Source of the DNA: an uncultured Candidatus Rokubacteria bacterium
Lineage (GTDB): Bacteria > Methylomirabilota > Methylomirabilia > Rokubacteriales > CSP1-6
Direction: 5' to 3'
Length of the DNA stretch: 64,000 nt
Assembly (NCBI GenBank): GCA_963747235.1
Contig: CAVVEU010000024.1
Coordinates: 160,001-224,000 of the forward strand
How positions within the stretch are numbered: position 1 is the stretch's first letter; the number at the start of each line of letters is the position of its first letter. Both the position numbers and the translations under genes were made by a program. The notes under the pieces are model-generated. The model was not told where the DNA came from. It worked only from the letters and a program-made list of their open reading frames with translations, and made no database searches. Shown here one piece after another: positions 33,155-51,066 of the stretch.

Positions 33155-33180
33155 GCCGATCCCGCCGACCGCGCGGGGCT

Positions 33181-33621
33181 TCAGCCGGTCACGTGCTGCC
33201 GGAACGCGTCGAGCGCGGCGGTGCCGACCGCCGTGTCCTGCTCACCGGTGCCCCCGCTGATGCCGATGCCGCCGACCACGTCGCCGTCCACCTCGATGGG
33301 GAAGCCGCCCACGAAGACCGCGAAGCGGCCGGGATGCATGGCGTGGATGCCGAAGGCCTCGTTGCCGGGCAGGGCGGGTCCGGCCGGCGGCTGATTGAAC
33401 GTGTGCGTCGCGCGCCGGTGCCCGGCGGCGGTGAAGGCCTTGGCGATCGCGATCTCCACGCCGGTGATGCGCGCGCCGGTCATGCGGTGGAGCGCGATCG
33501 GGTGGCCGCCGTCGTCGCAGACGCAGATCGTCTCGGTGACGCCGATCTCGCGCGCCTTCGCCTCGGCGGCGGCCAGCAGCACGAGCGCGTCCTCCAGGGT
33601 GAGCCGCTTGACCGTGATCAC
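33181..33621 (-). CDS. GlcG/HbpS (DUF336) heme-binding family protein
   Basis: IAIAKAFTAA, GGFPIEVDGDVVGGIGISGG; GTG start overlaps the Rieske stop. Confidence 0.88.
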   Translation of the reverse strand: MITVKRLTLEDALVLLAAAEAKAREIGVTETICVCDDGGHPIALHRMTGARITGVEIAIAKAFTAAGHRRATHTFNQPPAGPALPGNEAFGIHAMHPGRFAVFVGGFPIEVDGDVVGGIGISGGTGEQDTAVGTAALDAFRQHVTG

Positions 33622-33929
33622 GGCAGCTCCACGAAGATCGCGCCCTCGTCCACGCGCACCGGATAGACCGGCACGCTCGCGCCCCGGCCCGGGAAGAGGC
33701 ACTGGCCGGTGCGCACGTCGTACATCCAGCCGTGCCACGGGCAGGCCAGCCGGCTCCCGTTGAGCTTGCCCTGGCTCAGCGGGCCGCCGCGATGGGAGCA
33801 GACGTCGCCGCACGCGTAGACCGCGTCGCCGATCCGGGCGAGCACGATCCGGGTGCCGTCGAGCTCCACGAGCTTGAGCTGCCCGGCCGGCACCTCGTCC
33901 AGCGAGGCGACGTGCCGGGGCCCGCTCAC
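33618..33929 (-). CDS. Rieske [2Fe-2S] ferredoxin
   Basis: CSHRGG...CPWHGW motifs in a ~103-aa ORF. Confidence 0.92.
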   Translation of the reverse strand: MSGPRHVASLDEVPAGQLKLVELDGTRIVLARIGDAVYACGDVCSHRGGPLSQGKLNGSRLACPWHGWMYDVRTGQCLFPGRGASVPVYPVRVDEGAIFVELP

Positions 33930-34609
33930 GCGTCTTCCTTGAGGACGAAGGCGCGATGGAGCCCGGTCATGTACTGCCAGCGCATCTCGGTCGCCTCGCG
34001 CACGGCCTCCGCGGCGTCGCGCTGCTTCTCGGGGGTCGTGCTGTGGCGCTCCACGATCTGGTAGCCCCGCTCGCCGTGGATCTCGTCGGCCTCGATGTGG
34101 ATCGCGAAGAACTCCACCTCGTGGTCGGTGAAGCCGTAGTGGGTCTTGAGCGGCGGCAGGTTGCGCTTGTAGATGCCCGGCACCTGCGACTCGAGCCCCA
34201 CCAGCAGCCCGGCCGCCGCCACGTGGAAGGGCTTGCGCGCCGTCTCGTAGCACCACGCGGTCAGGCCGCGGGTGCTCGGGAGCTGCCGCGTGCTCTCGAC
34301 CTCGGTCCGGCTCACCCCGCACGCCTCGCCGAAGCGGATGAGGAGATCGACGTGTTTCGTGCCGGACTCCTCCTCGATGATGTTCTCGAGCAGGAAGTCA
34401 CAGGCGTCCGGATCCGGGCAGCCCCCGTACACCAGCGCGCACCAGCGCGAGAACTGCGAGACGTACTGGTAGTGCTGGCACACCCACTGGCCGAGCTGGG
34501 CCCGGGTCAGCTCGCCGTTGACCCACTTCTCGGTGAACGGATTCATCCGGCTGTGCCGGGCGTTGACCGCCTGCTCGAGCTGGGTGCGGAACGGGCTCAT
34601 GGTCGTCAT
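33926..34609 (-). CDS. Heme-oxygenase-like diiron oxidase (CADD/PqqC/TenA fold)
   Basis: [31 protein letters not shown] metal-ligand motifs. Confidence 0.85.
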
Positions 34610-34635
34610 GGCGTGCCTCCGTGCGTGAGATCGCG

Positions 34636-35138
34636 CTACGTGCGCGGATCGGTCTGGCCAGCAGGGCCTGCGTCTGCGCGTCCCGGTACTTCCGGAGCGC
34701 GGCGCGGATGTGGGGATGCTTGTTGGCCAGGATGGCGGCGGCGAGCAGCCCCGCGTTGGTGGCCCCCGCGTTGCCGATCGCCAGCGTGCCGACCGGGATG
34801 CCCGCCGGCATCTGCACGGTGGACAGCAGCGAGTCCATCCCGTTGAGCGCCTTGGACTGGATCGGCACGCCGAGGACCGGCAGCAGGGTCCGCGCCGCGC
34901 TCACTCCGGCCAGATGGGCGGCTCCGCCGGCTCCCGCGATGATGACCTCGAGGCCGCGCTCCTCGGCGCCGCTCACGTACTCGTCCACGAGCGCGGGCGT
35001 GCGGTGGGCGGACATCACGTTGACCTCGTAGGGGATGCCGAGGGCGTCGAGGGCCTTGGCCGCGTTCAGCATGGTGTCCCAGTCGGACTTCGAGCCCATG
35101 AGGATGCCGACGAGCGGCGCGGCGGAGCCGGGTGCCAT
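34636..35138 (-). CDS. purE: N5-CAIR mutase; frameshift near 34655
   Basis: [38 protein letters not shown]. Confidence 0.95.
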
Positions 35139-35206
35139 GGCGGCCCATTCTAGCAAGGCCTCAGGGCGTCGAACAGCGGCCCGCTGGCGGGCCGCCACGG
35201 GCCCCC

Positions 35207-35223
35207 TTGGCATGGCCGATGCA
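35207..35223 (+). promoter_or_regulatory. Putative sigma54 promoter of the sugar-biosynthesis cluster
   Basis: TTGGCATGGCCGATGCA with GG-N10-GC spacing and a near-consensus TGGCA; followed by an AT-rich tract at about 35285-35325. Confidence 0.6.
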
Positions 35224-35424
35224 AGTTATGCGTGCTTACCGACGTCCGTCGAGGATCAGCTCCAGTACGACCGGCAGCCAAGAGTTCTTATAACCATATG
35301 AATAACAAGTACTAAATACTCCATAGCGCATCGCGTCGGCGTCGCCCATCGGCCCCCGAGCAGGTAGCCGGTTGGTGACCAAGAGCGTCGTCGCCGAGAC
35401 GCTCCTCGTAGCTAGGTGGGGGCG

Positions 35425-36386
35425 ATGACGGCCGCTTCGCGAGTGGACCTGCTACGCAGCATGCTCCGCATCCGCCGCGTCGAGGAGACGCTCGCGGATC
35501 TCTACCCGTCGCAGGAGATGCGGACGCCGACGCACTTCTCGATCGGCCAGGAGGCGGTCGCGGTCGGCGTGTGCGCCGCGCTCCGCCGCGACGACATCGT
35601 CTACAGCGGCCACCGCTGTCACGCCCACTACCTGGCCAAGGGGGGCGACCTCGCCGGCATGGTGGCCGAGCTCTACGGACGCGAGACGGGTTGCGCGCGA
35701 GGACGTGGCGGCTCCGTCCATCTCAACGATCCCGACGCCGGGATCATCGCGTCCTCCGCGATCCTCGGCCAGACCATGGCGGTCGCGGTGGGAACCGCGC
35801 TCGCCTTCGCGATGGACGGCCGGGATCAGGTCGCGGTCAGCTTCTTCGGCGACGGGACCGTGGAGGAGGGCATCTTCCACGAGACACTGAACTTCGCGGT
35901 GATGCGGCGCGCCCCGGTGCTCTTCGTGTGCGAGAACAACGGCTTCTCGACCCACACACGGCTCGAGGTTCGCCAGCCGGTGACGGTGCCGATCCACGCG
36001 CGGGCCGCCTCGTACGGCATGCCCGCGCGCCTGGTGGACGGCAACGACGTCTTCGCGGTCTACGCCGCGGCCCGCGAAGCGGTCGCGCATCCCGGCGCGG
36101 CGCCGGGCCGTTCTTCCTCGAGTGCACCACCTACCGGTGGCGCGAGCACGTCGGCCCGCTGTGGGACTACGACAAGGGATATCGGACGAAGGCCGAGGTC
36201 GATGCGTGGATCGCCCGCTGCCCCATCCGACACGCGTCCGAGCGGCTCTTGGGCGACGGGGTGTGCACGCCGGACGAGATCGCAGGCGATGAAGCGGGCA
36301 AGCCAGGACGAGGTGGACGCGGCGGTCGTCGCGGCGCGCGCGCTCCTTCCCCGACGGTCGAGGACCTGACCACCGGCACCTACTGA
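35425..36386 (+). CDS. ThDP-dependent dehydrogenase E1 alpha-like subunit (frameshifted)
   Basis: HFSIGQEA, HRCHAH, GRGGSVH, GDG...ENN ThDP motif, TYRWREHVG. Confidence 0.88.
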
Positions 36387-36393
36387 GGACGCC

Positions 36394-37431
36394 ATGAGAG
36401 CGACTCGACCTACGTGGGAGGCCATCAGCGAAGCGACCGTCCAGTGCATGGAAGCGGACCCGGCATCTTCGTGACCGGGATCGGCGTCGACGACTTCAAG
36501 GGGATCTTCGGCACGACCGCGGAGGCCTACCGTCGGTTCGGCCCCGCGCGCGTCTTCGACATCCCGAACGGCGAGAACGCGATGACCGGCATCGCCATCG
36601 GCGCTGCGGCGGTCGGCAAGCGTCCGGTCGTCGTGCATCCGCGCAACGACTTCATGTTCCTGTGCATGGACCAGCTCTTCAACCTGGCCGCCAAGTGGCG
36701 GTACATGTTCGGCAACCGGGGCGGCGTGCCGGTGGTGTTCCGCGGCATCGTGGGCCGCGGATGGGGGCAGGGCGCGACGCATTCCCAGAGCCTGCAGGCG
36801 GTGTTCGCGCACTTCCCGGGACTCTACGTGGCCTTCCCGCGTCCCCCGCCGACGCGAAGGGCTTGCTGGTCAGCGCGCTCCAGGGCACCGGCCCGGTGGT
36901 GCTGCTCGAGAATCGCGCGCTCTACGAGCTCGAGGGCGAGGTGCCGGAGGAACCCGTGGCGGTGCCGTTCGGGAAGGGCAAGGTCGTGCGGCCCGGGACC
37001 GACGTCACGATCGTCGGCGTCTCGCTCATGGCCTACGAGGCGGTGCGGGCTGCCGAGATCCTGGCCGAGCAGGGCGTCGACGCCGAGGTGATCGATCTGC
37101 GCAGCGTCGCGGCCGCTCGACGAGGAGATGATCCTGCGATCGCTTCGGAAGACGGGGCGCCTGGTGGTGGCCGACACGAGCTGGGCTCTCTGCGGCGTCT
37201 CCGCCGAGGTCGCCGCGATCGCGGCCGAGAAGGGTTGGGACCATCTCAAGGCGCCGGTGCGTCGTGTCACGCCGCCCGATTGCCCGGCGCCGGTCTCGCA
37301 CCCGCTCGAAGACGCGTTCCATCCCAACCCGCTGACCATCGCGCAGGCGTGCCTCGACGTGCTGAGGACGGGGACGCCGATCGGGACGCGGCGTCACCGA
37401 CGTCCAGGCCACCTTCGCCGGACCATACTGA
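36394..37431 (+). CDS. ThDP-dependent E1 beta/transketolase C-like subunit (several frameshifts)
   Basis: RVFDIPNGENA, GWGQGATHSQS, DAEVIDLRS, LRKTGRLVV, spread over several frames. Confidence 0.85.
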
Positions 37432-37433
37432 GC

Positions 37434-38160
37434 TGACGCACCGCCGTCGCGTCAGCGTGTTCGTGCCTGCGTACAACGAGGCGGAGAATCTCGAGCGCGC
37501 GGTCGCGACATCGTCTGGGCCGCGGAGCAGGTGCTCGCGAGTACGAGATCCTGATCGTCGACGACGGCAGCCGCGACGCGACGGGACAGCTCGCCGACCG
37601 CCTCGCCGAGGAGAACGCTCGGATCCGGGCCGTCCACCAGCCTCGGAATCTGGGCATCGCGGCGGCCTACGAGCGCGCGCTCGACGAGGCGAAGCTCGAC
37701 TACTTCAGCTTCCTCGCCGCGCGACGGGGAGATCGCTCGCGACTCCATCCGCGACATCTTCGCGGCCGTCGGGCCGGCTGACATCGTGGCGCCCGTACCA
37801 CCAGAACCCGCGGGCGCGCCAGCTCCACCGCCGCTTGCTGACCTGGACGTCGACCCGCTCGTCAACGTGCTCTTCGGCCTTCGCATGCAATACTACCAGG
37901 GCCCCTGCATCTATCCGATCGCGCTCGCGCGCAGTCCTGCCGAAGACCGCGGGCGGCTTCTACTTCCTCACCGAGATGCTCGTCCACGCGCTACACGCCG
38001 GCTATAGCTACGTCGAGGTCGGGCCTCACCCACCTGGACCGCTCCCACGGCCGATCCAAGGCCGTGTCCGCCCGGAATATCCTGAAGGCGCTGCGGGCGA
38101 TCGCGCAGCCGTGGTGGTCGATCCACGTGCGGCACGGGCTCCGTCGCGCGGAGGTCCTGA
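37434..38160 (+). CDS. GT2 glycosyltransferase, polyprenol-phosphate (DPM1-like) type; frameshifted, start uncertain
   Basis: VSVFVPAYNEAENL, ILIVDDGSRDATG, GFYFLTEMLVHA fragments. Confidence 0.75.
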
Positions 38161-38161
38161 C

Positions 38162-39178
38162 ATGGCGAGGACATCGTCCGACGGTGCTCGTCACTGGCGG
38201 CGGTGGCTACGTCGGAGCCGTGCTGGTCCCGAAGCTCCTGGCCGCCGGTTATCGGGTTCGGGTCGTCGATCTCTTTCTCTTCGGCGCCGACGTGCTGCCC
38301 GAGGACCCGGCCCTCGAGCTCGGTGAAGGCGGACATCCGGGACCGGGCGCTCCTCGAACGCCAGATGCGGGGGTCGATGCCGTCATCCACCTCGCGTGCA
38401 TCTCGAACGACCCGAGCTTCGAGCTCAATCCGACGCTCAGCCGGTCGATCAACTACGACTGCTTCGAGCCCCTCGTCGACGTCGCCCGGCGCGCCGGAGT
38501 CGCGCCGCTTCATCTACGCGTCCACATCGAGCGTGTACGGCGTCAGCGACGCCCCCGACGTGACCGAGGACCATCCGCTCGTGCCGCTGACCGACTACAA
38601 CAAGTACAAGGGCATGTGCGAGCCGATCCTGCTCCGGTATCAGGCGCCCGACTTCACGACGGTCATCATCCGGCCGGCCACGGTCTGCGGGTACTCGCCG
38701 CGGCTCCGGCTCGATCTGACGGTCAACATCCTCACCAACCTCGCGGTCAACAAGCGGCGCATCACGATCTTCGGCGGGCGCCAGAAGCGCCCCAACATCC
38801 ACATCGAGGACATCACGATCTCTACGTCGAGCTGCTCGACATGCCGGACGAGCATGATCGCGGGGCAGACCTTCAACGCCGCCTACCAGAACCACACGGT
38901 CGCCGAGCTCGGCGAGATGGTGCGAGACGATCGTGAGCGCGGGAGATGCCCGAGCTGGGCCCGATCGCGGCTCGAGACGGCGCCGAGCAACGACACTGCG
39001 CTCGTATCACGTCTCGTCCGAGAAGATCAAGCGCGAGCTCGGCTGGTCGCCCGAGCGCACCATCGAGGACGCGGTCGATCGACCTGTGTCGCGCCTTCCG
39101 GGCCGGGCGGATCCCGACCCGCTCGACGACATCCGCTACTACAACGTCAAGACGATTCAGGCGTCGGGCCTGGCCTGA
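38162..39178 (+). CDS. NAD-dependent epimerase/dehydratase (extended SDR), frameshifted
   Basis: VTGGGGYVG, HLACISNDP, STSSVYG, YNKYK, RPATVCGYSPRLRLDL. Confidence 0.88.
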
Positions 39179-39181
39179 GCG

Positions 39182-40180
39182 ATGCCGCGCGCCGTCGTCA
39201 CCGGCGGAGCGGGCTTCATCGGCAGCCACATGGTCGATCTGCTGGTCGACCGAGGGCTATTCAGGTCGTCGTGATCGACAACCTGGTCACCGGGCCGACG
39301 CGAGAATCTCGCGCAGCACGCGGCGCGATCCGCGCGTCGAGCTTCGCACCGTGGACATGTGCGCGCTGGCGCCGGACGACGCCGCTGTTCCGCGACGCCG
39401 ACTATGTGTTCCACTTCGGCGGCATCGGCGACATCGTGCCGTCGATCGAGCGGCCGCTCGACTACATGCGGGCCAACGTCGACGGCACGCTCGCGGTGCT
39501 CGAGGCCGCGCGGCGCGCCGGGCGTGCGCAAGTTCGTCTACGCGGCCTCGTCGTCGTGCTACGGGCTCGCCACCGAGCTGCCGACCACGGAGGAGGCCGC
39601 CGATCCGGCCCGAGTATCCGTACGCGCTCAGCAAGTACCTCGGCGAGAGCGCGGCGCTGCACTGGGCCCAGGTGTACCGGCTGCCCGTGATCTCGATCCG
39701 CATGTTCAACGTCTACGGTCCACGCGTGCGCACCACCGGCGCCTACGGCGCGGTGTTCGGCGTGTTCCTCGCGCAGAAGCTCCACGGCAAGCCGTTCACC
39801 GTCGTCGGAGACGGCACCCAGCCGCGGGACTTCGTGTTCGTGACCGACGTGGCGCGGGCGTTCCTGCTGGCCGCGGAGTCCGCCGAGACGGCGAGGTCTT
39901 CAACCTCGGGCGCGGGCGACCCGCAGACCGTCAACCGGCTCGTGGAGCTGATCGGCGGCGACGTGGTGCACCTGCCGAAGCGCCCGGGCGAGCCGGACTG
40001 CACGTGGGCCGACATCGGCAAGATCCAGCGGCGCGCTCGGCTGGGAGCCCGAGGTGTCGTTCGAGCAGGGCGTCGCGGCGATGCTCGGCCAGATCGAGGA
40101 CTGGCGGGCGGCGCCGCTGTGGACGCCCGAGAACGATCGAGGCGGCGACCCACACGTGGTTCGAGCACCTGGCGCGATGA
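39182..40180 (+). CDS. NAD-dependent epimerase/dehydratase (extended SDR), frameshifted
   Basis: VTGGAGFIG, ASSSCYG, YALSK, FNVYGPR, RDFVFVTDVA. Confidence 0.88.
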
Positions 40181-41736
40181 AGGCCGACTACCGGCAGAAG
40201 ATGAAGACGCTCGAGGAGCTGGCGCGCGGCCATCGGCCCGCGGCCCCGCGCACGAAGACGCGTCATCATGTGCCACGGGATGTTCGACATCGTCCATCCG
40301 GGACATCTGCGGCACCTGATGTACGCCAAGGAGAAGGCGGACTCCTGATCGCGAGCCTCACCGCCGACGAGCACGTCACCAAGGCGGCCTTCCGGCCGTA
40401 CGTGCCCGCAGGAGCTGCGCGCGGCCAACCTCGCCGCGCTCGAGATGGTCGACTACGTGATCATCGACCCGAACCCGACGCCGATCGCAGCACATCAAGT
40501 ACCTGCAGCCCGACTACTTCGCCAAGGGCTACGAGTACTTCTCCGAGGGCGTGCCCGCCAAGACGCAGGAGGAGATCGACACGCTGGAAAGCTACGGCGG
40601 CGAGATCGTGTTCACGCCCGGCGACGTCGTCTACTCCTCGTCGCGCGCTGATCGAGGCGGCCCCGCCGAAGCTCGGCGTCGAGAAGCTGCTGGCCCTGAT
40701 GGAGTCGGAGGGCTTCGGGTTCGATCGATCTTCGCGAGACGCTCTCCGGCAGATGCGACGGGTCTGCGGGTGCACGTGGTCGGCGACACGATCGTGGACA
40801 CCTATAGCTACTGCTCGCTGCTCGGGCGCCACCGCGAAGTCGCCGACCTTCAGCGTCAAGCACGAGCGGACCGAGGTGTTCGCGGGCGGCGCCGCGGTGG
40901 TAGCCAAGCACGTGAAGGCGGCGGGCGCCGACGTCTCCTTCTCGACCGTCCTCGGCAACGACGCGGCCAAGGACTTCGTGCTGAAGGATCTGGACGAGGC
41001 CGGGGTCGTGGTGCACGCCTTCGTCGATCGGACCCGGCCGACCACCCAGAAGGAGCGGTTCATCGCGGACGGCTACAAGATGCTCCAGGTCGACCGGGTC
41101 GACAACCGGCGCGGTCTCGGAGCAAGGCGCTGCGCGTTCCTCAGCGACTCGATGGCGGACAGCCGCGCGGACGTGGTGATCTTCAGCGACTTCCGCCACG
41201 GCATCTTCAACCGCCAAGACGCATCCGCGATCCTGCGCGAGCGCGTGCCCGGCCGGCGCGCTCAAGGTGGCGGACAGCCAGGTGTCGAACCGCTGGGGCA
41301 ATATCCTGGACTTCACCGACTTCGATCTGCTGACGCCGAACGAGCGCGAGGCGCGGTTCGCGCTCGGCGATCAGGATTCGGTGGTGCGGCCGCTCGCGCT
41401 CGCAGCTCTTCCGGCGCGCCCGGCTGCAAGCACTGATCCTGAAGCTCGGCGAGCGCGGGCGTCCTCGGCTACCGCACGCCCGGGCCCGATGCCGCGCGAG
41501 TTCTTCACGGTCGACAGCCTCGTCGAACGCCTGGAGGACCCGATCGGCGCCGGCGACGCGCTCCTCGCGCTACGCGTCGCTCTCGCTGGCCGCCACCCGG
41601 CAACATCGTCATCGCCTCGATCCTGGGCTCGGTCGCGGCCGCCCTCGCCTGCGAGCGTCAGGGCAACGTGCCGATCGCCCCGGACGAGGTGGACGAGAAG
41701 ATCAACCTGATCGAAAAGCGGGCGCACTTCGAATGA
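40177..41736 (+). CDS. Bifunctional nucleotidyltransferase + PfkB sugar kinase (HldE-like, reversed domain order), frameshifted
   Basis: N-terminal GMFDIVHPGH (HxGH) and YFAKGYEY; C-terminal VVGDTIVD, RPTTQKERF, TPNEREA, DPIGAGDA. Confidence 0.8.
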
Positions 41737-42650
41737 GATACGTGGTCGTCGGCCTCGGCAACATCGGCGGCAAGCGCAAGCGCGGTGCTGGGTGACCGGT
41801 GTGTGGCGACCGTCGACCCGTTCAATCCCGCCGCCGACTTCCGCCACCCGACGACTGCCCCGACAACGCGCTACGATGCGGCGGTGCTGGCCGTGCCGAA
41901 CGACGTGAAGCTCCGACTGATGGAGTTCTTCCTCGACGCGCGGCAAGCACGTGCTGGTCGAGAAGCCGCTGATCCTGGACCGCCGAGACGGCCGCGCACC
42001 TGAACGGGTGAGCCGGGCCCCGGCGCCGATCTGGTATACGTCGTACAACTTTCGGTTCGAGCCCAACGTGGTGGCCCTCAAGCGGCACCTGCGAGGCGGG
42101 CACGATCGGACGCCTCTACCGGGTGCGGATGTTCTACGGCAACGGCACGGCCGGGAACATCGCCGGTACGTGGCGGGACAGCCGGCTCGGAGTCCTCGAG
42201 GACATGGCCCGCCACCTGATCGACCTGACCGGCTTCGTGTTCGGCCGCTTCGGTGCCGAGTTTCGCGTGTGGGAGCGTCGCGGCCACGAGCTCAAGGGCT
42301 TCGACCACTGCATCCTCGCCACATCCGATCGTAGCATCGACCATCGAGTGCAGCTTCCTGTCCTGGAAGAATCGGTGGCGGATCGAGGTGCTCGGCGAGG
42401 AGGGCGCACTCGAGATGAACGGGCTCACGAAGTGGGGCAAGAGCGAGCTTCTGATCCTCCGCCGGCGCCGGCCCAGCGGCGTGCCGGACGAAAGCCGGGA
42501 GGTGGCGCACGGCCCGGATCCCACCTGGGCCGCCGACATCCGGCACTTCGAGGAGATGGTCGCGACCGGGGTGACGTCGTGCGAGAACGACCTGTGGCTG
42601 TCGCGCACGGTGCAGCGGCGGCCGCCGGCCGCCCCGAGGGCGGCTCGTGA
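41733..42650 (+). CDS. Gfo/Idh/MocA family oxidoreductase, frameshifted
   Basis: VVGLGNIG, HVLVEKP, YNFRFEP, GVLEDMARHLIDL. Confidence 0.8.
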
Positions 42651-43943
42651 GCGACCGCCCGACCGGCTTCCTCGGGCCTCTCCCACCTCGGGATCATCTC
42701 GAGCGTCGGCTGGGCCTCGCTCGGATCGCGGTGGTCGCGGTCGACCTCGATCGTGGGCCGGTCGAGTGGCTCCGCCGGGGCGCGCTGCCGGTGCACGAGC
42801 CCGCGCTCCCGGAGCTCTTCGCGGCGCATCGAGAGCGGATGAGCTTCTCGAGCGATCCCGCCGCGCTGGCCGAGTGCGACCTCGTCATCGTCTCGCGGGA
42901 CATCCCCACGGACGCAGACAACGGGAGCGACGTCTCGGTCGTCGACCGTCTGATCGAAGCCGCCGTCCCGCACCTCCGGCCCGGATCCACCCTGGTCCTG
43001 ATGAGCCAGGTTTCTCCCGGATCCACGCGCGCTCTCGCCGCGCGGATCGATCTCGCCGGCCGGGGGCCGGGATCGCGTGTACTACTGGGTCGAGACGCTC
43101 ATCTTCGGCAACGCGGTGCAGCGGTTCCTCCATCCGGAGCGGATCATCGTGGGCTCCGCCGATCCGTCCCGGCCGCTTCCCGCCGCGCTCGACGAGGGGC
43201 TCCGTCGCTTCGACTGCCCGATCCTGCCGATGGGCTACGAGAGCGCGGAGCTCACCAAGACCGCGATCAACCTCTACCTGTTCGGGGCGGTGACCTACGC
43301 CAACACGCTCTCCGATCTCTGCGAAGCGGTCGGGGCGGACTGGTCCGAGATGGTGCCCGCCCTTCGTCTGGATCGCCGCATCGGACCCGCCGCCTACATC
43401 CGCCCGGGCCTCGGCATGGCGGGAGGGAACCTCGAGCGCGACCTCGTCACGCTTCGTGGGCTCGGGCAGCGCCACGGCGTCGACGTCGCCTACGTCGAGA
43501 CGCTGCTCGCCCACAATACTCGTCGCTATCGCTGGGTCCAGCGCCAGCTCCAGCGATCGCGGTGCTCGATCGCGATGCCCGGGCGGTGGTCGCGGTGTGG
43601 GGCCTCGCCTACAAGAAGAACACGCGGTCGACCAAGAACTCGGTGGCCCTGCGGGTGATCGACGACCTCGGGGCCGCGCCGAGGTGCGCGCGTACGACCC
43701 GCTGGTCAAGGCGCAGACGGCGGACGTGGCGCGCCACCCTGGTGGAAAGCGCGACACCGCCCTCGACGGCGCCGACTGCCTGCTGATCCTCACCGACTGG
43801 GACGAGTTCGCCACGCCGCCTGGGGGCGGGTTCCGAGCGATGCGCCGGCCAGTGGTCATCGATTGCGTCGGGGTGATGGACGCGCCGTCGCCGACTTGCC
43901 GGGCGTCGAGTACGTGGCGATGGGCCGTCCGGGGCGCCGATGA
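42647..43943 (+). CDS. UDP-glucose/GDP-mannose dehydrogenase-like protein lacking the catalytic Cys, frameshifted
   Basis: EPALPEL, PERIIVG, SAELTKTAIN, LRLDRRIG, GLAYKKNT, ILTDWDEF; PGLGMAGGNLERD replaces GGxC. Confidence 0.8.
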
Positions 43944-44475
43944 GCCGCCGCGCGGCCTTCCTCGATCGCGACGGCGTGCTGGTCGAGACGTTCGTGCGCG
44001 ACGGCCGCGCGCACGCCGCGGTCACCCTCGCGGAGTTCCGGATCTCCCCGGAGGCGCCCGCGCAGGTCGCACGGCTCAAGGCGGCCGGGTCTGCGGCCGA
44101 TCGTCTTCACCAACCAGCCCGAGGTCGCACGCGGCACACTCACCCCGGAGACGCTCGACCCCATGCACGCTCCTCTGCGCGCGGCCGTCGACGTCGACGA
44201 CATCCTCGTGTGCGTGCACGCCGATGGCGACGACTGCGCGTGCCACAAGCCCCGGCCCGGCATGCTCGAGGCGGCGGCGCGGAACTGGACGCTCGACCTG
44301 CCCGCCTCGTTCGTGGTCGGCGACCGGTGGCGGGACATCGACGCGGGGCGAGCCGTCGGCTGCTACACGGTGCTCATCGACCGCCCTTACAGCGAGTGCG
44401 CGTCGCGGACGCCCGCGTCGCCGATCTGGCCGACGCGGTCGACGTGGTGCTCGCCCGAATAGAGGATCCCAATGA
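43940..44475 (+). CDS. GmhB-like HAD sugar-bisphosphate phosphatase, frameshifted
   Basis: FLDRDGVL, TNQP, CACHKPRPGML, VGDRWRDIDAG. Confidence 0.85.
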
Positions 44476-45070
44476 ACTTCGTCGCCAAGTACCTCGCCGA
44501 GGCCTCGCAGGTGGCGGCGCGGATCGATCACGCAGCGGTCACGCGCCTGGTCGATCTCTCGCGGAGGCGCGCGACGGCGGCGGCCGGCTGTTCGTCCTCG
44601 GCGTCGGCGGCAGCGCCGGCAACGCCTCCCACGCGGTCAACGACTTCCGGAAGATCGCGGGCTTCGAGGCCTACACGCCCACCGACAACGTCTCCGAGCT
44701 GACCGCCCGCATCAACGACGACGGCTGGGACACCTCGTTCGCCAACTGGCTCAGGGGGAGCCGGCTCGGCCCCCGGGACTGCGTGCTCGTCTTCTCGGTC
44801 GGCGGCGGCGACGCGGAGCGCAAGGTGAGCATCAACCTCGTGCGGGCGCTGGAGTACGCCAAGACGGTGGGGGCCCGCATCGGCGGCATCGTCGGCCGCG
44901 ACGGCGGCTTCACCGCCACGGTCGCCGACGCGTGCGTGATCATCCCCACCGTGAACCCGGAGCGGGTCACCGCGCACACCGAGGCGTTCCAGGCGGTGGT
45001 CTGGCACCTGCTCGTCTCCCACCCCCGCCTCCAGGCCGCGCCGATGCGCTGGGAGAGCCTGACCCGATGA
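44472..45070 (+). CDS. GmhA-like SIS-domain phosphosugar isomerase, frameshifted
   Basis: GVGGSAGNASHAVNDF, TARINDDGW, HTEAFQAVVWHLL. Confidence 0.85.
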
Positions 45071-45944
45071 GCGGGATGCCGGCGCGGGTCGTGATCCTGG
45101 GCGCCAGCGGCTTCCTCGGCCGGGCGCTCCACGCCCGGCTCGCGGGCGACGGCGTCGAGGTGGTCGCGCATTCGTCACGGACGCTGGACCTCACGCGGGC
45201 GGATGCCCTGGCCGTCCTCGACGGGGTGGTGGGCCCGGCACCGCGCTCGTGTTCGCGTCCGCCTTGACCCCGGACCGGGGCCAGACCCCCGCCACTCTTC
45301 TTGCCAACACCACGATGGCCGCGAACCTGGCCGCCTATCTCGAGGGGCGTCGCCTCGCCCGCCTCGTCTACGTGGGCTCGGACGCGGCCTACGGCTTCGG
45401 CGAGCCGCCGGTCACCGAGGACACGCCGGTCTCGCCCGCCGGCTACTACGCGATCGGCAAGTACGTGGGGGAGCGGGTGATGGAGAGCGCGGCCCGCGCG
45501 GGCGGCTTTCCGCTGCTGACGCTCCGGGTGACCGGCGTCTACGGCCCCGGCGATCCGCACGCCTCCTACGGGCCCAATGCCTTCGCGCGCTCCCTGGCGC
45601 GTGACCGGACCGTCCGGATCTTCGGGGCGGGGGAGGAAGAGCGCGACCACGTCTACGTCGACGACGCGGCCCGGGTGATCGCGGGCCTGCTCCGGAGCGG
45701 CGCCGACGGCGTCTACAACGTGGCCACCGGGCAGAGCCAGTCGTTCGCGGACGTGGTGAAGACGATTCGCGACCTCGTGCCCTACGAGGTCACGGTGACG
45801 AGCGTGGCGCGGACGGGGCCGATCACGCATCGCCGGTTCGACACCGGCCGCCTGGCCCGCGCGCTGCCCGGCCTGCGCTTCACGCCGATCCGGGACGGCC
45901 TCCGGGCCACCCTCGTCGCCTTTGGAGCGATCGCGAATGGCTGA
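45067..45944 (+). CDS. NAD-dependent epimerase/reductase (SDR), frameshifted
   Basis: ILGASGFLG, SDAAYG, YAIGK, RDHVYVDD. Confidence 0.85.
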
Positions 45945-46589
45945 GGTCGATCTCCTCGACCGCTATCCGCGCGCCACGCGCGACATCGCGGCCCGCGCCG
46001 CCGCGGCCCCGGCCCAGCGCGAGGTGGCGACGCGATTCGCTCGCGAGTACTTCGACGGCGAGCGCGGCCAGGGCTACGGCGGCTACCGCTACGACGGCCG
46101 CTGGGTGCCGATCGCCGAGCGCATGCGCGACCACTACCGGCTGCGGGCCGGCGACCGCGTGCTCGACGTCGGGTGCGCCAAGGGCTTCCTGCTCCACGAC
46201 CTGCGCCGCCTGTCGGGGGGCTGCGCGTCGCGGGCCTCGACATCTCGGCCTACGCGCTGGGCCAGGCGAAGGACGACGTGCGGCCGTTCCTCGCACGCGG
46301 CACGGCGGAGCGGCTGCCGTTCGCGGACAAGGCGTTCGACCTGGTGGTGTCGATCAACACCCTGCACAACCTCGACCGCGCGGACTGCATCCGCGCGCTC
46401 GGCGAGATCGAGCGGGTGAGCCGCCGCCACCGCTACGTCCAGGTCGACTCGTGGCTCGACGAGACGCAGCGCGAGAAGTTCGAGCGCTGGCAGCTGACCG
46501 CGCTCACCTATTCGGATCCGGAGGGCTGGCGGCGCCTGTTCCGCGAGGCCGGCTACACCGGCGACTACTACTGGACCGTGACGGAATGA
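45937..46589 (+). CDS. Class I SAM-dependent methyltransferase, frameshifted
   Basis: YFDG..GYGGYRYDGRW, VLDVGCAKGF, LPFADKAFDLVVSINTLH. Confidence 0.85.
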
Positions 46590-46614
46590 CGGAGCGGGCC
46601 CGGAGGGAGACATC

Positions 46615-47287
46615 ATGAAGATCTTCGTCGATTCGGCGAACCTGGTGGAGATCGAGGAGGCGCTGGAGCGCGGGTTTCCCGCCGGCATCACCACGAACCC
46701 GTCGATCCTGGCCAAGGAAGAGAAGGCGGACTTCCGAGATCACATCAAGAAGATCATCGAGCTCGTGCAGCGATACGGCTACGACATCCCGCTGAGCGTC
46801 GAGGTCTTCTCGACCCAGCCGGAGGAGATGATCGACCAGGCCGAGGACTTCGTGCGCGAGTTCGGCCACTACCCGAACCTGAACGTCAAGGTGCCGGTCG
46901 GCTGGGACGAGCTGCGCCGTGATCAGCGAGCTCGCCGGCGCGGGCATCCGGGTCAACTGCACCTGCTGCATGACGTATAGCCAGGCGGTCATGGCGGCGG
47001 CGGCGGGCGCCAACTACGTGAGCCTCTTCTACGGTCGCATCCGCGACGTGGGCTACGACGCGGCCTCGGTGGTCCGCTCGGTTCGCGAGACCTTCCGCGA
47101 GCGCGCGGTGCCCTGCGAGATCATCGTGGGCAGCATCCGGCACATCGCGGACATCAGCGAGGCCTTCCAGGCCGGCACCGACATCGTCACGGTGCCCCCG
47201 AAGTTCTTCCGGCCGATGGTCGGCCACCCCAAGACCGACGAAGCGGTGCAGCAGTTCGTGACCGACTTCCAGAAGTGGATGCAGTAG
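46615..47287 (+). CDS. Small (TalC/FSA-family) transaldolase; frameshift near 46915
   Basis: GITTNPS, SVEV, Schiff-base NVKVP, VNCT, SLFYGR, GSIR, HPKTDEAV. Confidence 0.88.
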
Positions 47288-47826
47288 ATGAAAGGGCTGG
47301 TCCTCTCCGCGGCGGCCCTGGTGCTCCTGGTGCTCGGGAGCGCGGTCGCGCTCCGCTTCTACCGCGGGAACAAGGAGTTCCGGGTGTTCCTCGGCGCGTT
47401 CGCCGCCGCGGTGGTGCTGTACACCGGGACGTTCTGGCTGCTCCCGCCCGATCTGGGTTTCCTGCCCGCGGGCTGGCGGGAGACGGTCGCGTGGGTGGAC
47501 TTCGGGAACGGCCTCCTGCTCCTGGTCCTGATGTTCCACGGCTACTGGTGCTTCTCCTACTTCGCCTGTCTGAGCCCGTCCATGAGCGTGATGGTGTCGC
47601 TCCGGCTCCGGGGCCGCGAGGGCATGTCGCGCGCCGAGGTCCTCGGCGATTCAGGGCAGCGATCAGCCGGTCAACCTCATCTTCCAGCGCCGGCTGCCCG
47701 AAGCTCCTGCAGGGCGGCTACGTGCGGGAGGAGGCAGGCGCGTACCGGATCCTCGCGCCGGGTGAGCGGGTCGCCGCGCTGGGATCCTTCCTCGAGCGCC
47801 TGATCAACGCCCAGGTGGGCACTTAG
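47288..47826 (+). CDS. Hypothetical 3-TM membrane protein, paralog A (frameshifted)
   Basis: Hydrophobic segments, PPDLGFLP motif, C-terminal RRLPKLLQGGYVREEAGAYRILAPG. Confidence 0.6.
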
Positions 47827-47836
47827 GGCCGCCGCG

Positions 47837-48361
47837 GTGCTGAAGGGTCTCGTGCTCTGCGGACTGCTCATCACGACGTGGCTGATCGTGCAGGCCGCGG
47901 TGTTCCATCTCGTGGCGCCCCGGAAGGCGTTCGCCTCGATGCTGGCGGCCTTCGCTCCCATGGTGCCGCTCTACCTCGTGCTCTATCTCATGACCCCGGC
48001 CGATCTGGGATTCCTCTCGCCCGCGTTCGTGGGCGCGGACTGGCGGCTCGGGCTCGTGAACGGGCTCGTGCTCCAGATGTTCCTGTTCCTCACCGCCGGC
48101 TTGTTCTATTCCCACGCGGACCGCTCGATCACCGTCCGGCTGCTGATCGAGCTGGCCCGCGCGCCCCATCAGCGCCTCACGCTCGCCCAGATGCAGGCGG
48201 TGTGCGGGGTGGAGGTGCTCATGGCCGATCGCCTGGAGATCATGCTGGCCAATCGCTTCCTGAGGGCCCAGGGCGACCGCTTCGTGCTCACCCCGAAGGG
48301 CTGGATCGGGGGCAGCATCGGGCTGGCGGCCCGCAAGATCCTCCGCATGAAGGCCCTCTAG
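47837..48361 (+). CDS. Hypothetical 3-TM membrane protein, paralog B
   Basis: PADLGFLSP, NGLVL, SITVRLLIEL, DRLEIMLANRFLRAQGDRFVLTPKG. Confidence 0.65.
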   Translation: MLKGLVLCGLLITTWLIVQAAVFHLVAPRKAFASMLAAFAPMVPLYLVLYLMTPADLGFLSPAFVGADWRLGLVNGLVLQMFLFLTAGLFYSHADRSITVRLLIELARAPHQRLTLAQMQAVCGVEVLMADRLEIMLANRFLRAQGDRFVLTPKGWIGGSIGLAARKILRMKAL

Positions 48362-48453: not shown

Positions 48454-49452
48454 ATGACGGTAGGCGCGCCCCGGTCCGCCCGGGAAGCGCTCCAATCGGG
48501 CGCGATCAGTCTCGAGGCGCTCCGAGCCGTCCACCGGATGCGCGACGGCCGCAGCGCGCTGGACGTGCTCGGCGCGCTGGCGTCGTTCGTGGCGGTGCCG
48601 GTGGTCTTCGGGCTCTATCCCCGCTGGTGGACCGCCGCGCTCCTGGCGCTCTGGGCGATCCGCAACTTCAACTGCGCGGCGCAGCTCGTCCACGAGAGCG
48701 ACCACGGCACCCTGTTCCACGACCCGCGCCTGAACCAGGGATTCGGCAACCTCTTCGCGTACCTCCTCGGCTACACGCGCGGGGGGCACCGGACCGCGCA
48801 CATGGATCATCACCTCTACCTGAACACCGATCGCGACCCGGACATCATCTTCAGCCAGCCGGAGGCGTCGGCGGCCGCGATCCTGAAGGGCCTGCTCGGC
48901 GATCTCGTCTTCGTCTCCGCGATCAAGCGCCTGCTCCAGTACTCGCAGTCCGACCGCGCCACGTACTCCGTCTCCCCGTGGCGGCGCCTCACGCCGGCCT
49001 ACTTCGTCCGCATGGCCGCCACGATGGTCCCGGTGGCCATCACGCAGCTCGTGCTCCTGGCGCTCTTCACGATGGCGGGCGGGCCCTGGGCCTACCTGCT
49101 CCTGCACGTCCTGCCGATCATGACGCTCTATCCGCTCCAGATCCGGGTCCGCTCGATCGCCGAGCACGGCTTCGAGGCGGGCTACCATCCGGAGTCGCCG
49201 CAGGAGGCGTGGGTGACGCGGACGAGCCGGTTGAACCTGGTCGAGCGATGGATCATCGCGCCCTTCGGCCAGTATCTCCACTATGAGCACCACGTGTTTC
49301 CCAGCATTCCCAACTACAACCTGCCCGAGGTGCATCGTCTCCTCGTGGCCGCGGGGATCCCGGTGCCCACCAATCGGAGCTATTTCGGCTTCCTGTTCCA
49401 GAAGATCCGGGCCGAATGGCGGAGCGGGTCGGCCGGCCGCGAGCGGGCATGA
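48454..49452 (+). CDS. Membrane fatty-acid-desaturase-family diiron enzyme
   Basis: Three His boxes: HESDH, HMDHH, HYEHH; also RSIAEH and FPSIPNYNLP. Confidence 0.88.
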   Translation: MTVGAPRSAREALQSGAISLEALRAVHRMRDGRSALDVLGALASFVAVPVVFGLYPRWWTAALLALWAIRNFNCAAQLVHESDHGTLFHDPRLNQGFGNLFAYLLGYTRGGHRTAHMDHHLYLNTDRDPDIIFSQPEASAAAILKGLLGDLVFVSAIKRLLQYSQSDRATYSVSPWRRLTPAYFVRMAATMVPVAITQLVLLALFTMAGGPWAYLLLHVLPIMTLYPLQIRVRSIAEHGFEAGYHPESPQEAWVTRTSRLNLVERWIIAPFGQYLHYEHHVFPSIPNYNLPEVHRLLVAAGIPVPTNRSYFGFLFQKIRAEWRSGSAGRERA

Positions 49453-50381: not shown

Positions 50382-50387
50382 CCCGTC

Positions 50388-51066
50388 ATGGCGCTCCGCT
50401 ACGCGACCGAGCTCGGCGCCTTCGACCGGATCGAACGATCTGGCCTTCCAGGTGCGGCGCCGGATCTTCGAGCGATTCATGCGCGAGTGCGCGCCCGGCC
50501 CCGACGCGCGCGTGGCCGACTTCGGCGTGTCCGGTCATCGCGACCATCCGGTGCACTACTTCTTCGAGAGCCTGTACCCGTACCGGCAGCAGGTCACCGC
50601 GATCGGACGGGCGGCGGAGGAGGCGGGCTGGTTCGAGGAAGCCTTTCCCGGCCTGCGCTTCCTGGAGGCGGATCTCCGGGAGATCCCGCTACCCGACGGG
50701 TACTTCGACTACGGGATCTGCAACGCGGTGGTCGAGCATGGGGGAACGCGCGAGCAGCAGCGGGCTCTCGTCGCGGAGGTCTGTCGCGTGAGCCGGTGCG
50801 TGCTCTTCACCACGCCCAACAAGCGGTTTCCGCTCGAGCTGCACACCTGGCTGCCGCTGCTCCACTGGCTGCCGGATGCGGCGTACCGGGCCAGCCTGCG
50901 CCGCCTCGGTCTCGACTACTTCGCGGAGATCGAGAACCTGAACCTGCTCGACCCGGAAGCGTTCCTGTCGCTTTTCCCGAGATCCCGTCAGAATCGCCTG
51001 CTGAAGTCCGGTCTCCCGCTCCTGCGCTCGAATCTCGTCTGCCTTTCCCGCGCCGGCGGACGCTAG
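50388..51066 (+). CDS. Class I SAM methyltransferase (frameshift near the 5' end)
   Basis: VADFGVSG, IPLPDGYFD, NAVVEH, TTPNKRFPLELHT. Confidence 0.8.

Follow-up and report, generated by a model that had tools for sequence, protein, structure and literature searches.

A frameshifted copy of a cross-phylum gene cassette, possibly for an activated higher-carbon surface sugar, in a Rokubacteria genome

The 64,000-nucleotide stretch of DNA analysed here (the window) comes from a Methylomirabilota (Rokubacteria) MAG of a soil bacterium and carries, at 35.4-47.3 kb on the + strand, 13 genes that belong to a set common to many bacterial phyla and so far unstudied, the product of which is probably a C7/C8, methylated and possibly branched surface sugar. 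Our main reading, to which we give a probability of about 45%, is that the window holds an error-ridden copy of a cross-phylum cassette for an activated higher-carbon sugar of a surface glycan, with an octose backbone favoured. It is very probable that the cassette as such is a dedicated, non-housekeeping pathway to an activated sugar with seven or more carbons.

Gene content and nearest relatives

A Pfam search covered all 94 stop-to-stop segments on the + strand from 33 to 52 kb that reach a length of 50 aa. Every domain family falls in one strand-consistent block, running from E1_dh through Transket_pyr/Transketolase_C, Glycos_transf_2, Epimerase, Epimerase and PfkB to GFO_IDH_MocA_C3, three UDPG_MGDP_dh domains, HAD and SIS_2, and ending with Epimerase/RmlD, Methyltransf_11 and TAL_FSA. 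The transaldolase (TAL), GmhA-like isomerase, GmhB-like phosphatase, three SDRs and methyltransferase of a first-pass annotation of this DNA were all recovered in this way; its list was complete except for one gene, the GT2 at 37372-38160. The gene boundaries below, including that of E1 alpha, were taken from DNA alignment mapping, and the indels counted are private frameshifting ones.

35372..36386, + strand: E1 alpha (ThDP-dependent, PDH/acetoin-DH E1 type); PF00676, 2.3e-48; 5 indels
36395..37431, + strand: E1 beta; Transket_pyr and Transketolase_C over three frames; 6 indels
37372..38160, + strand: GT2 glycosyltransferase, nearest to polyprenyl-phosphate sugar synthases; PF00535; 9 indels
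38162..39178, + strand: SDR1, extended SDR of the epimerase/dehydratase family; PF01370; 12 indels
39179..40180, + strand: SDR2, NDP-sugar 4-epimerase type; PDB GalE 4zrm, 1e-52; 11 indels
40004..41736, + strand: nucleotidyltransferase (NTase)-kinase fusion, resembling HldE with its domains in the opposite order; 22 indels
41733..42650, + strand: Gfo/Idh/MocA oxidoreductase; PF22725 and PF01408 in the orthologue; 7 indels
42594..43943, + strand: UDP-glucose-dehydrogenase-family protein without the catalytic Cys; three UDPG_MGDP_dh domains; 10 indels
43940..44475, + strand: HAD-IIIA phosphatase, GmhB-like; Pfam HAD families; 3 indels
44396..45070, + strand: SIS-domain isomerase, remote GmhA relative; SIS_2, 36 bits in the orthologue; 3 indels
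44932..45944, + strand: SDR3, keto-reductase type (RmlD/GDP-fucose synthase like); 1 indel
45937..46589, + strand: class I SAM methyltransferase; Methyltransf_11 and Methyltransf_25; 1 indel
46615..47287, + strand: dedicated short TAL; TAL_FSA over two frames; 1 indel
47288-47826 and 47837-48361, + strand: a pair of small membrane proteins, paralogous to each other, whose synteny with the cluster is limited to the genus
31238-33151 and 51349-53433: PMT_2-family GT-C proteins with TPR repeats, flanking the cluster on both sides

None of the specific NCBIfam equivalog cut-offs was reached for PDH E1, HldE, GmhB, HldD or FSA/TAL. The E1 alpha orthologue scores 295 bits against TIGR03182 (cut-off 393.85) and the E1 beta orthologue 295 bits against NF006667 (cut-off 321); E1 alpha carries a GDG...NN motif at 35848. 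As previously annotated, the pair stands without E2 or E3: neither appears among the + strand Pfam segments, and none of 80 minus-strand segments (35.2-49.6 kb) matches any family, so that the cluster lacks E2, E3 and an aminotransferase. SDR1 finds weak NCBIfam matches (GalE 94 bits, HpnA 74 bits), SDR2 (YALSK at 39621) has WbpP and WbgU as its next PDB matches after GalE, and SDR3 scores 62 bits with both rmlD and Fcl, its PDB matches including GDP-L-fucose synthase and GDP-6-deoxy-D-mannose reductase. The HAD protein has a DRDG motif at 43961, and its orthologue exceeds the TIGR01662 cut-off (83.6 versus 44.6 bits). The SIS protein has a GVGGS motif at 44600 and top PDB matches that are all GmhA, at 1.6e-9 and weaker. 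The membrane protein pair has no Pfam or NCBIfam match, the Atlas clusters closest to it hold hypothetical proteins with no name, and among the loci compared it is present only in those of Rokubacteria.

The fusion annotated earlier as kinase/nucleotidyltransferase is present, with its halves in the other order. Its HxGH motif (40283) lies upstream of the PfkB GAGD motif (41546), opposite to HldE. In the orthologue, CTP_transf_like spans residues 88-198 and PfkB residues 252-549, with PDB matches to cytidylyltransferase 5x9q, which we take to be HldC, over residues 58-184 and to HldA 4e84 over 248-545; judged from sequence, both halves belong to the ADP-heptose type (HldA/HldC). The mapped start at 40004 is the earliest possible one, and the true start probably lies near 40175. 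The adjacent Gfo and UDP-glucose-dehydrogenase-like pair was also found, but the dehydrogenase, which exceeds the TIGR03026 cut-off (219 versus 189.8 bits), has Asn where the catalytic Cys stands: GGsCfpKD of solved UGDH aligns with aGGnleRD (GGNLERD at 43413 in the window), and Asn recurs in all 26 cross-phylum loci with a readable motif. PDB matches of the Gfo protein are generic (inositol dehydrogenase 2.7e-10, WbpB 7.8e-6, sugar 3-ketoreductase 7.9e-6).

The cassette across phyla and its transaldolases

The cassette core consists of SIS-HAD-TAL, two SDRs, the reversed-order HldE-like NTase-kinase, Gfo, the Cys-less UDP-glucose-dehydrogenase-like protein, an SDR reductase and the methyltransferase, the last at 50-69% identity across phyla. 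The E1 pair and GT2 often, not always, lie within it, and the E1 pair is not constant. The cassette was found in Chloroflexota, Proteobacteria, Gemmatimonadota, Planctomycetota and others, including the cultured Labrys okinawensis. With the Cys-less dehydrogenase as anchor, the same gene order is seen in 27 loci (Methylomirabilota, Chloroflexota, Alpha-, Beta-, Gamma- and Deltaproteobacteria, Gemmatimonadota). TAL is present in 19 of these; six of the remaining eight are cut by a contig end, and the full-flank cassettes L096 and L116 have no TAL within reach. In L102, L107 and L108 the SIS gene is absent beside TAL. Among 44 full-flank loci anchored on a second cassette-TAL lineage, SIS is found in 38, HAD in 36, the fusion in 29 and the dehydrogenase in 32.

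The residues from which the gene had been called a transaldolase, Glu in SVEV and Phe in SLFYGR, are readable in the window (PLSVEVFS at 46792, NLNVKVP at 46876, SLFYGR at 47021), and alignment to the solved TALs 3r8r, 1vpx and 3s0c gives the Glu/Lys/Phe catalytic set; the private indel is a 1-bp insertion at 46915. The genome holds three TAL genes, a high-scoring one on contig C40 and two within sugar clusters. In a 198-row tree, window-type TAL lies within a 59-row clade (SH-aLRT 98), and the C40 TAL, with every TAL row from a set of other loci, falls in a separate 98-row clade (SH-aLRT 96). By this tree the cluster TAL is outside the housekeeping TAL clade.

Contigs C20 and C11 carry GT9 genes and an HldE-type kinase stronger than that of the cluster, the kinase standing beside GT9 on C20; the genome's LPS-core heptose genes (HldE-like, GT9) are likely on C20, and the housekeeping TAL is on a third contig (C40). 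The place of the kinase and GT9 genes, the TAL tree and the missed equivalog cut-offs agree with the earlier claim that this is no ordinary LPS-core heptose pathway, and we read the cassette as distinct from the LPS-core ADP-heptose pathway.

Sugar backbone and predicted route

Each step of the route is assigned from family membership. TAL would take a C3 unit off fructose-6-P or sedoheptulose-7-P and join it to an aldose phosphate, and the GmhA-like SIS protein would convert the resulting ketose phosphate to an aldose phosphate. Phosphorylation at C1 would fall to the PfkB half of the fusion, removal of the terminal phosphate to the HAD enzyme and nucleotide attachment to the cytidylyltransferase-like half, the nucleotide probably being AMP by HldC kinship. 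Tailoring could involve SDR2 (4-epimerase type), a two-electron oxidation by Gfo and the Cys-less dehydrogenase, perhaps towards dehydration, keto reduction by SDR3, the methyltransferase and, in loci that have E1 alpha/beta, transfer by this pair of a pyruvate-derived C2 unit onto a keto intermediate; GT2 may then transfer the product to polyprenyl phosphate. The favoured acceptor is ribose-5-P, which would yield an octose, as with LmbR, over erythrose-4-P, which would yield a heptose.

A modified heptose (C7) is possible, if doubtful. TAL would then merely raise or balance sedoheptulose-7-P, and the product would be an ADP-heptose derivative, epimerised, oxidised or deoxygenated, methylated and sometimes C2-branched. 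Consistent with this are the nearest solved relatives (GmhA, HldA and the presumed HldC), the closest NCBIfam models (HldE domains I and II, GmhB, heptose 6-epimerase) and the two full-flank cassettes without TAL; in addition, cassette TALs belong to two different lineages in the 198-row tree, which could equally mean an exchangeable supply enzyme. However, equivalog scores are all far under their cut-offs (144 versus 521 bits for the fusion with NF008454 HldE, 106.5 versus 178 for the HAD orthologue with NF006506 GmhB, and 125 versus 274.6 with HldD), the genome already has a TAL for housekeeping and, at another place, an HldE/GT9 locus, and the cassette retains TAL in 19/27 loci and SIS beside TAL in 38/44. 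Since sedoheptulose-7-P normally comes from transketolase, it is not obvious why a heptose pathway would need a transaldolase of its own. The ADP-L-glycero-beta-D-manno-heptose pathway (GmhA, HldE or HldA+HldC, GmhB, HldD) shares its isomerase, kinase, NTase and phosphatase families with the cassette, but here the fusion order is opposite, a transaldolase is built in and GT9 is not nearby.

For the octose backbone, LmbR is a precedent for an octulose-forming transaldolase. LmbL and LmbZ are UDP-glucose-dehydrogenase-like and Gfo-like, respectively. The parallel with the lincosamide GDP-octose/GDP-lincosamide pathway (S. lincolnensis, S. caelestis; its later members include LmbZ/CcbZ and LmbS/CcbS) drawn in the first-pass annotation holds for the roles of LmbR/N/P/K/O/M/L/Z as listed in Table 2 of PMC4351081 and in PMC12945683, namely transaldolase, isomerase, kinase, phosphatase, nucleotidyltransferase, epimerase and the pair of a dehydrogenase and an NAD(P) oxidoreductase, a likeness of listed roles and protein families. 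The two differ at activation, where LmbO is listed as a guanylyltransferase (PMC4351081) and the kinase and NTase here are fused and, by nearest relatives, of the ADP-heptose type. The cluster here also has no aminotransferase, has E1 alpha/beta, a methyltransferase and GT2 as extras, and sits in a Gram-negative-type soil bacterium in a surface-glycan context.

The annotation's view of E1 pairs as C2-branching enzymes of keto-sugars is borne out in passages of PMC4753412 and PMC12247030, where transfer of a pyruvate C2 unit to keto-sugars is documented or proposed for two-subunit aKADH2 ThDP enzymes (AviB1/AviB2, Pau11/Pau12, the aldgamycin enzyme, KbDH-alpha/beta); for LPS sugars, PMC12247030 names YerE-like enzymes, which consist of a single chain, as those that introduce the branch. 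The pair here shares the lack of E2/E3, the GDG...NN motif and a nucleotide-sugar cluster, a likeness of family, motif and gene context. The known examples act in actinomycete antibiotic pathways on deoxyhexoses, whereas here the setting is a surface-glycan cassette whose activation genes are of the heptose type.

Inspection of the GT2 points to the polyprenyl-phosphate sugar route, in which a DPM synthase/ArnC GT2 precedes a GT-C enzyme (ArnT/PMT). Its top PDB match is Pyrococcus dolichol-P-mannose synthase (5mlz, 1.4e-10, residues 25-244), with ArnC next, although the ArnC equivalog gives only 31.6 bits versus a cut-off of 529. PMT_2 GT-C neighbours flank the cluster; because they are kept within the genus only, this link may be mere synteny.

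Status of the window copy and destination of the sugar

Each of the 13 genes has 1 to 22 private frameshifting indels and therefore no intact ORF in this assembly, so the window copy could in principle be dead. The 93 such indels are chiefly insertions of 1 bp and lie mostly at 36-44 kb; the count is only 2-8 in each of four orthologous loci, and contigs of four public short-read metagenomes lack the inserted bases, which makes assembly or consensus errors the most likely cause. Orthologues at 83-87% identity have long intact ORFs for the cluster genes.

We consider it improbable that the frameshifts are real and the copy a decayed pseudogene cluster, made redundant by a paralogous cluster that lies 270 kb away on this contig and is intact in the same assembly. 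That intact neighbour fits decay, as do the concentration of frame changes (13-14 per 4 kb at 36-44 kb versus 2-5 over the same length beyond 36-48 kb) and a third-position share of private substitutions somewhat below that of the nearest orthologue, L002 (134/251 versus 102/165). Yet the substitutions still favour third codon positions, and the indels are unlike natural decay: 84 of 97 private indels are single-base changes, chiefly insertions, no large deletion occurs and synteny holds over the full length. On contig C20, too, genes are split over frames, and locus L012, from a related long-read Rokubacteria MAG, looks similarly fragmented.

Decoration of a secondary metabolite (an antibiotic-like glycoside) instead of a cell-surface glycan is highly improbable. 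All characterised E1-type branching pairs serve such products, Lmb is an antibiotic pathway (PMC4351081, PMC12945683) and PMC12247030 places two-subunit aKADH2 ThDP enzymes mainly in specialised natural products, but genes for a PKS, an NRPS, an aglycone or resistance are absent from the window, the cassette is widely spread over phyla, and its neighbours elsewhere speak for the surface. In other phyla it adjoins rmlBADC, a pair of ABC-2 transporter genes and additional GT2 genes, a setting typical of O-antigen-like loci, and an Acidobacteria relative adjoins Bac_transf and a Polysacc_synt flippase.

Gene content and reading frames of the cluster

The source genome comprises 5.57 Mb on 42 contigs and is 88% complete, with ~70% G+C. 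A Pfam search of all 94 plus-strand segments delimited by stop codons, from 33 to 52 kb of the window, recovered, as a single block, every family named in the first-pass annotation, together with a GT2 gene that its list had omitted. The order on the plus strand is E1 alpha, E1 beta, GT2, two SDRs (SDR1 and SDR2), a PfkB piece, Gfo/Idh/MocA, three UDP-glucose-dehydrogenase domains, HAD, SIS, a third SDR (SDR3), a methyltransferase (MT) and a transaldolase (TAL). Since none of the 80 minus-strand segments of the cluster region matches any Pfam family, and given the Pfam content of the plus strand, the cluster lies on one strand and has no E2, E3 or aminotransferase match on either, which upholds the earlier description of an E1 alpha/beta pair unaccompanied by E2/E3. 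Diagnostic motifs are legible in the window sequence itself, including SVEV, NVKVP and SLFYGR of the TAL; in an alignment to solved transaldolases these fall on the catalytic Glu, Lys and Phe, bearing out the Glu and Phe originally read from SVEV and SLFYGR.

In GC3 frame plots, the stretch from 36 to 44 kb of the window switches reading frame at intervals of a few hundred bases, with 13-14 frame changes per 4 kb there versus 2-5 outside 36-48 kb. No GC3-consistent ORF was called at window 26800-31200, although very long ORFs overlap there on both strands; a large low-complexity gene and a further error-rich stretch are the candidate readings. Of the 20 other genomes of the genus searched, 10 have a syntenic copy of the cluster at 83-87% identity, and these loci contain long intact ORFs. 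A five-way MAFFT alignment of the window with four orthologues identifies 97 indels private to the window, 93 frameshifting and 84 single-base (mostly insertions); the orthologues have 2-8 frameshifting indels each in the same alignment. All 13 genes are affected, from one indel (TAL, MT, SDR3) up to 22 in the gene for the NTase-kinase fusion. At window 36000-44000 the density reaches ~1 indel per 100 bases; most are 1-bp insertions, and CG-rich or GATC contexts are frequent. This burst is restricted to ~8 kb, and the remainder of the window is well framed.

We consider it very probable that these indels are local consensus error rather than decay, with low coverage, strain mixing or base modification as possible causes. 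As a short-read check, we used contigs from four public metagenomes, which represent relatives (the top run shares 0.06 of sampled words, range 0.05-0.06). These contigs are one base shorter at 37109, 38997, 40134, 40224, 40252/40254, 40646, 41109, 41136 and 42338, and each omission coincides, within one base, with a private insertion flagged by the alignment. Third-codon-position bias is also kept among private substitutions in the window (134 of 251, nine genes), as compared with 102 of 165 in the nearest orthologue. Genes on another contig of this genome, C20, are likewise broken across frames, so indel errors are not limited to the window. Real decay of the window copy finds its chief support in an intact paralogous cluster on the same contig. 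In practical terms, the region should be polished before any gene call is trusted; here, gene boundaries in the window were placed through DNA alignment with the orthologues, and protein annotation was done on the intact orthologues as reference.

Activation enzymes and transaldolase compared with housekeeping counterparts

The intact orthologues of the cluster proteins other than the SIS protein were compared with NCBIfam models. In contrast to the canonical ADP-heptose pathway, the cluster proteins do not attain the curated equivalog scores: no specific cut-off was reached for HldE (NF008454, 143.8 vs 521), rfaE domain I (127 vs 345), rfaE domain II (88 vs 181.5), GmhB (NF006506, 106.5 vs 178) or HldD (TIGR02197, 125 vs 274.6), and the only models passed are generic ones, for NDP-sugar dehydrogenases and HAD-IIIA. 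The orthologue of the fusion is a 568-aa protein with a cytidylyltransferase-like NTase at residues 88-198 and a PfkB kinase at 252-549, and in the window HxGH (40283) likewise lies upstream of GAGD (41546). This order is opposite to that of HldE, where the kinase is N-terminal and the adenylyltransferase C-terminal. The nearest PDB entries for the two halves are 5x9q ("putative cytidylyltransferase"), which we take to be B. pseudomallei HldC, and the HldA heptose-7-P kinase 4e84. PDB matches to the SIS protein are all GmhA, at a weak 1.6e-9. Unlike canonical LPS-core genes, the cluster is not linked to GT9, matches to which are confined to contigs C20 and C11; on C20, a stronger HldE-type kinase adjoins GT9 heptosyltransferases. 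This C20 stretch (28984-38608) is the likely LPS-core locus, and it too has frame-split genes.

The genome carries three transaldolase genes, one high-scoring (contig C40) and two within sugar clusters. A TAL tree of 198 rows was built with IQ-TREE (quick mode, SH-aLRT support), with a midpoint root that serves for drawing only. Rows left out beforehand were seven near-identical ones from Rokubacteria, the 48 of 150 library representatives whose length fell outside 205-250 aa, and hits that contained stops or aligned over fewer than 170 residues. The input included TALs from a search with a 6-row alignment, in which 78 of 80 loci were lone housekeeping-type TALs. One 98-row clade (support 96) unites the C40 TAL with all TAL rows that the remaining loci of that search contributed, the window-type TAL falls in a separate 59-row clade (support 98), and cassette TALs from other phyla make up a third, long-branched lineage (support 100). 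The first-pass annotation had named grouping with housekeeping LPS-core genes as one outcome that would count against it; for the TAL, the tree places the window type outside the C40 clade. Together with the missed equivalog scores and the location of HldE and GT9 on C20, this position supports the original proposal that the cluster does not represent housekeeping LPS-core heptose genes.

An Acidobacteria MAG (JAFDVQ010000003.1, 7182-13276 of the compared locus) carries a TAL with 55% identity to that of the window, within a different cassette, which has an RpiB-cytidylyltransferase fusion and a PfkB kinase in place of the GmhA-like SIS protein and adjoins Bac_transf, SDR and cupin genes. Judged from its genes, this is a putative GmhA-free variant of a TAL-primed activation cassette.

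Distribution of the cassette and related clusters

Anchoring on the UDP-glucose-dehydrogenase-like protein, in which Asn replaces Cys, yielded 27 loci with the constant order SDR1-SDR2-fusion-Gfo-dehydrogenase-SDR3-MT in Methylomirabilota, Chloroflexota, Alpha-, Beta-, Gamma- and Deltaproteobacteria and Gemmatimonadota. Gfo adjoins the dehydrogenase in all 27, SIS-HAD-TAL mostly lies directly upstream, and E1 alpha/beta is near about half. TAL is present in 19; six of the eight TAL-less loci are at contig ends and two (L096, L116) are not. A search for a second TAL lineage returned at least 568 confirmed matches. Among the best 80 of these, 44 loci had full 8-kb flanks, containing SIS in 38, HAD in 36, the fusion in 29 and the dehydrogenase in 32. 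E1 alpha/beta occurs in 4 TAL-anchored loci, a low count that is uninformative because the pair would mostly fall past the 8-kb flank. Carriers among the best 80 include Pirellulaceae, Chthoniobacter, Bipolaricaulota, Elusimicrobia and the cultured Labrys okinawensis DSM 18385, which has the complete cassette; no actinomycete lincosamide-type locus appears among these 80. In Proteobacteria, an ABC-2 transporter pair or rmlBADC lies beside the cassette. Literature searches on the cassette, the reversed fusion and Labrys glycans returned nothing relevant; subscription journals lay outside their scope, and a published characterisation is possible.

The intact paralogous mega-cluster lies ~270 kb downstream on the same contig (464001-496000) and repeats GT2, E1 alpha/beta, two SDRs, the NTase-kinase, Gfo, the Cys-less dehydrogenase, SIS, HAD and TAL at ~70% DNA identity. 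Beyond this repeated set it has a second module, as well as genes of MptE-like, B12-binding and PglD-like type. Only the paralogous cluster has DegT genes (two), with none in the window cluster. A plasmid search with the fusion protein gave only two matches, at 31-32% identity, from a related TAL-less cassette.

Modules with E1 pairs related to the cluster
Mega-cluster, within 464001-496000 of the window's contig: second module, with NTase-kinase, SIS, SDR, two DegT, E1 alpha/beta, an unknown gene, radical SAM/SPASM, GT2, CBS-NTP_transferase and a Cys-bearing UGDH
Azospirillum oryzae KACC 14407 (cultured), plasmid NZ_CP054615.1, 207458-226819: TAL-less relative of that second module, in the order SDR, SDR, 511-aa "PfkB family" fusion, SIS, SDR, E1 alpha, E1 beta, two DegT, hypothetical, radical SAM, NUDIX

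Because the Azospirillum module also pairs them, E1 alpha/beta and reversed-HldE genes recur in more than one cassette type.

Tailoring enzymes and a candidate octose route

Inspection of the UDP-glucose-dehydrogenase-like protein reveals that "aGGnleRD" aligns to "GGsCfpKD" of solved enzymes, with Asn for Cys and Arg for Lys. This motif is found at 43413 in the window, in seven orthologous loci and in the paralogue, and Asn replaces Cys in 26 of 26 cross-phylum loci with a readable motif. UDP-glucose and GDP-mannose 6-dehydrogenases, which are four-electron, uronic-acid-forming enzymes, have the GGxCxxKD Cys, the nucleophile for the second oxidation in UDP-glucose dehydrogenases; in contrast, the cluster protein, with Asn aligned at this position, lacks that nucleophile. 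Complex prediction for the dehydrogenase with Gfo scored 0.00, which weighs neither for nor against their pairing. PDB matches identify SDR2 as 4-epimerase type and SDR3 as keto-reductase type, and those of the Gfo protein are generic. The GT2 protein is nearest dolichol-P-mannose synthase, with ArnC second.

The E1 alpha and E1 beta proteins, with a ThDP motif and no E2/E3 inside a nucleotide-sugar cluster, fit the sugar-branching pairs of the aKADH2 family as described in PMC12247030. For AviB1/B2 and Pau11/12, the proposed reaction extends a keto intermediate by a C2 unit taken from pyruvate (PMC4753412), and C2 transfer by KbDH-alpha/beta is demonstrated in vitro (PMC12247030). JanthE was rejected as a parallel, being a single-chain YerE-like enzyme and not of the E1 alpha/beta type.

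In the lincosamide octose pathway (Lmb/Ccb), LmbL is UDP-glucose-dehydrogenase-like and LmbZ Gfo-like. PMC4351081 (Table 2) and PMC12945683 assign roles to LmbR/N/P/K/O and LmbM/L/Z, with LmbL a dehydrogenase, LmbZ an oxidoreductase and LmbO classed as a guanylyltransferase in PMC4351081. The pathway's own transaldolase, LmbR, which forms the ketose phosphate, may have a counterpart in the dedicated non-housekeeping TAL with Glu/Lys/Phe, and the LmbL + LmbZ/CcbZ pair acting on NDP-octose may have one in the adjacent Gfo and Cys-less dehydrogenase, both likened by role. The LmbN isomerase domain and LmbK phosphatase have counterparts at family level only (SIS_2 GmhA-like and HAD-IIIA GmhB-like). 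Whereas separate LmbP kinase and LmbO lead to a GDP-sugar, the cluster has one CTP_transf_like + PfkB fusion, and no NTP_transferase (PF00483) domain was found by Pfam on either strand. Lmb/Ccb also includes a PLP aminotransferase (LmbS/CcbS), a domain that the cluster lacks.

Reading function from family membership at every step, we propose that TAL would form a ketose phosphate and the SIS protein isomerise it, that the kinase half would add a C1 phosphate and the HAD enzyme strip the terminal phosphate, and that the NTase half would activate the sugar, probably with AMP. Tailoring would involve the epimerase, the Gfo/dehydrogenase pair, the reductase and the methyltransferase, and the E1 pair, by analogy with AviB1/B2, Pau11/12 and KbDH-alpha/beta, might use pyruvate as the source of a C2 unit that it adds to a keto intermediate. 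GT2 may then pass the sugar to polyprenyl phosphate, a weak link because synteny of the flanking GT-C/TPR genes is limited to the genus.

An octose backbone is favoured, with a probability of roughly 45%, because the enzyme roles parallel those of Lmb and because a dedicated transaldolase has no obvious use in a heptose pathway, which the pentose phosphate pathway supplies. A heptose derivative is somewhat less probable; in its favour, the activation enzymes descend from heptose enzymes, and L096 and L116 are TAL-less. Other possibilities are together less probable still. Returning to the octose, we tentatively suggest, as a more doubtful proposal, that the multi-phylum cassette supplies surface glycans with an ADP-activated octose, or with an O-methylated sugar of 9-10 carbons that is C2-extended or C2-branched. 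It would rely on its own TAL, as in lincomycin biosynthesis, on a reversed HldE, on the E1 alpha/beta ThDP pair and, to oxidise or dehydrate the side chain, on the Cys-less dehydrogenase and its Gfo partner. If so, the E1 pair would be the first such branching enzyme beyond antibiotic pathways. To our knowledge, octoses and longer branched sugars occur in just a few antibiotics and in rare O-antigens; were the product of this class, the class would prove common on soil and water bacterial surfaces across many phyla, and a function would be gained for the reversed HldE, for the dehydrogenase with Gfo, and for an aKADH2 pair in primary glycan synthesis. The question is directly testable, since cultured Labrys okinawensis has the complete cassette.

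TAL is followed by a pair of small membrane proteins, paralogues from a conserved but unnamed family (window 47288-48361); an Atlas search with the 174-aa member returned unnamed clusters only. A fatty-acid desaturase and two methyltransferases come next (48627-49449, 49287-51063), and the desaturase and first methyltransferase also lie beside the cassette in a distant Methylomirabilota MAG (39% and 62% identity), company that may hint at a lipid-linked product. Elsewhere, window 8906-24719 encodes chemosensory proteins of Frz-like type, namely an MCP, Hpt, CheA-CheW and response regulators that bear DUF4388 and Roadblock domains. The same region has an MglA/MglB-like combination of a small Ras/Arf-like GTPase and its Roadblock/LC7 partners, together with a PilB-type ATPase. 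On domain content, the whole is a predicted polarity module for gliding or twitching in a Rokubacterium.
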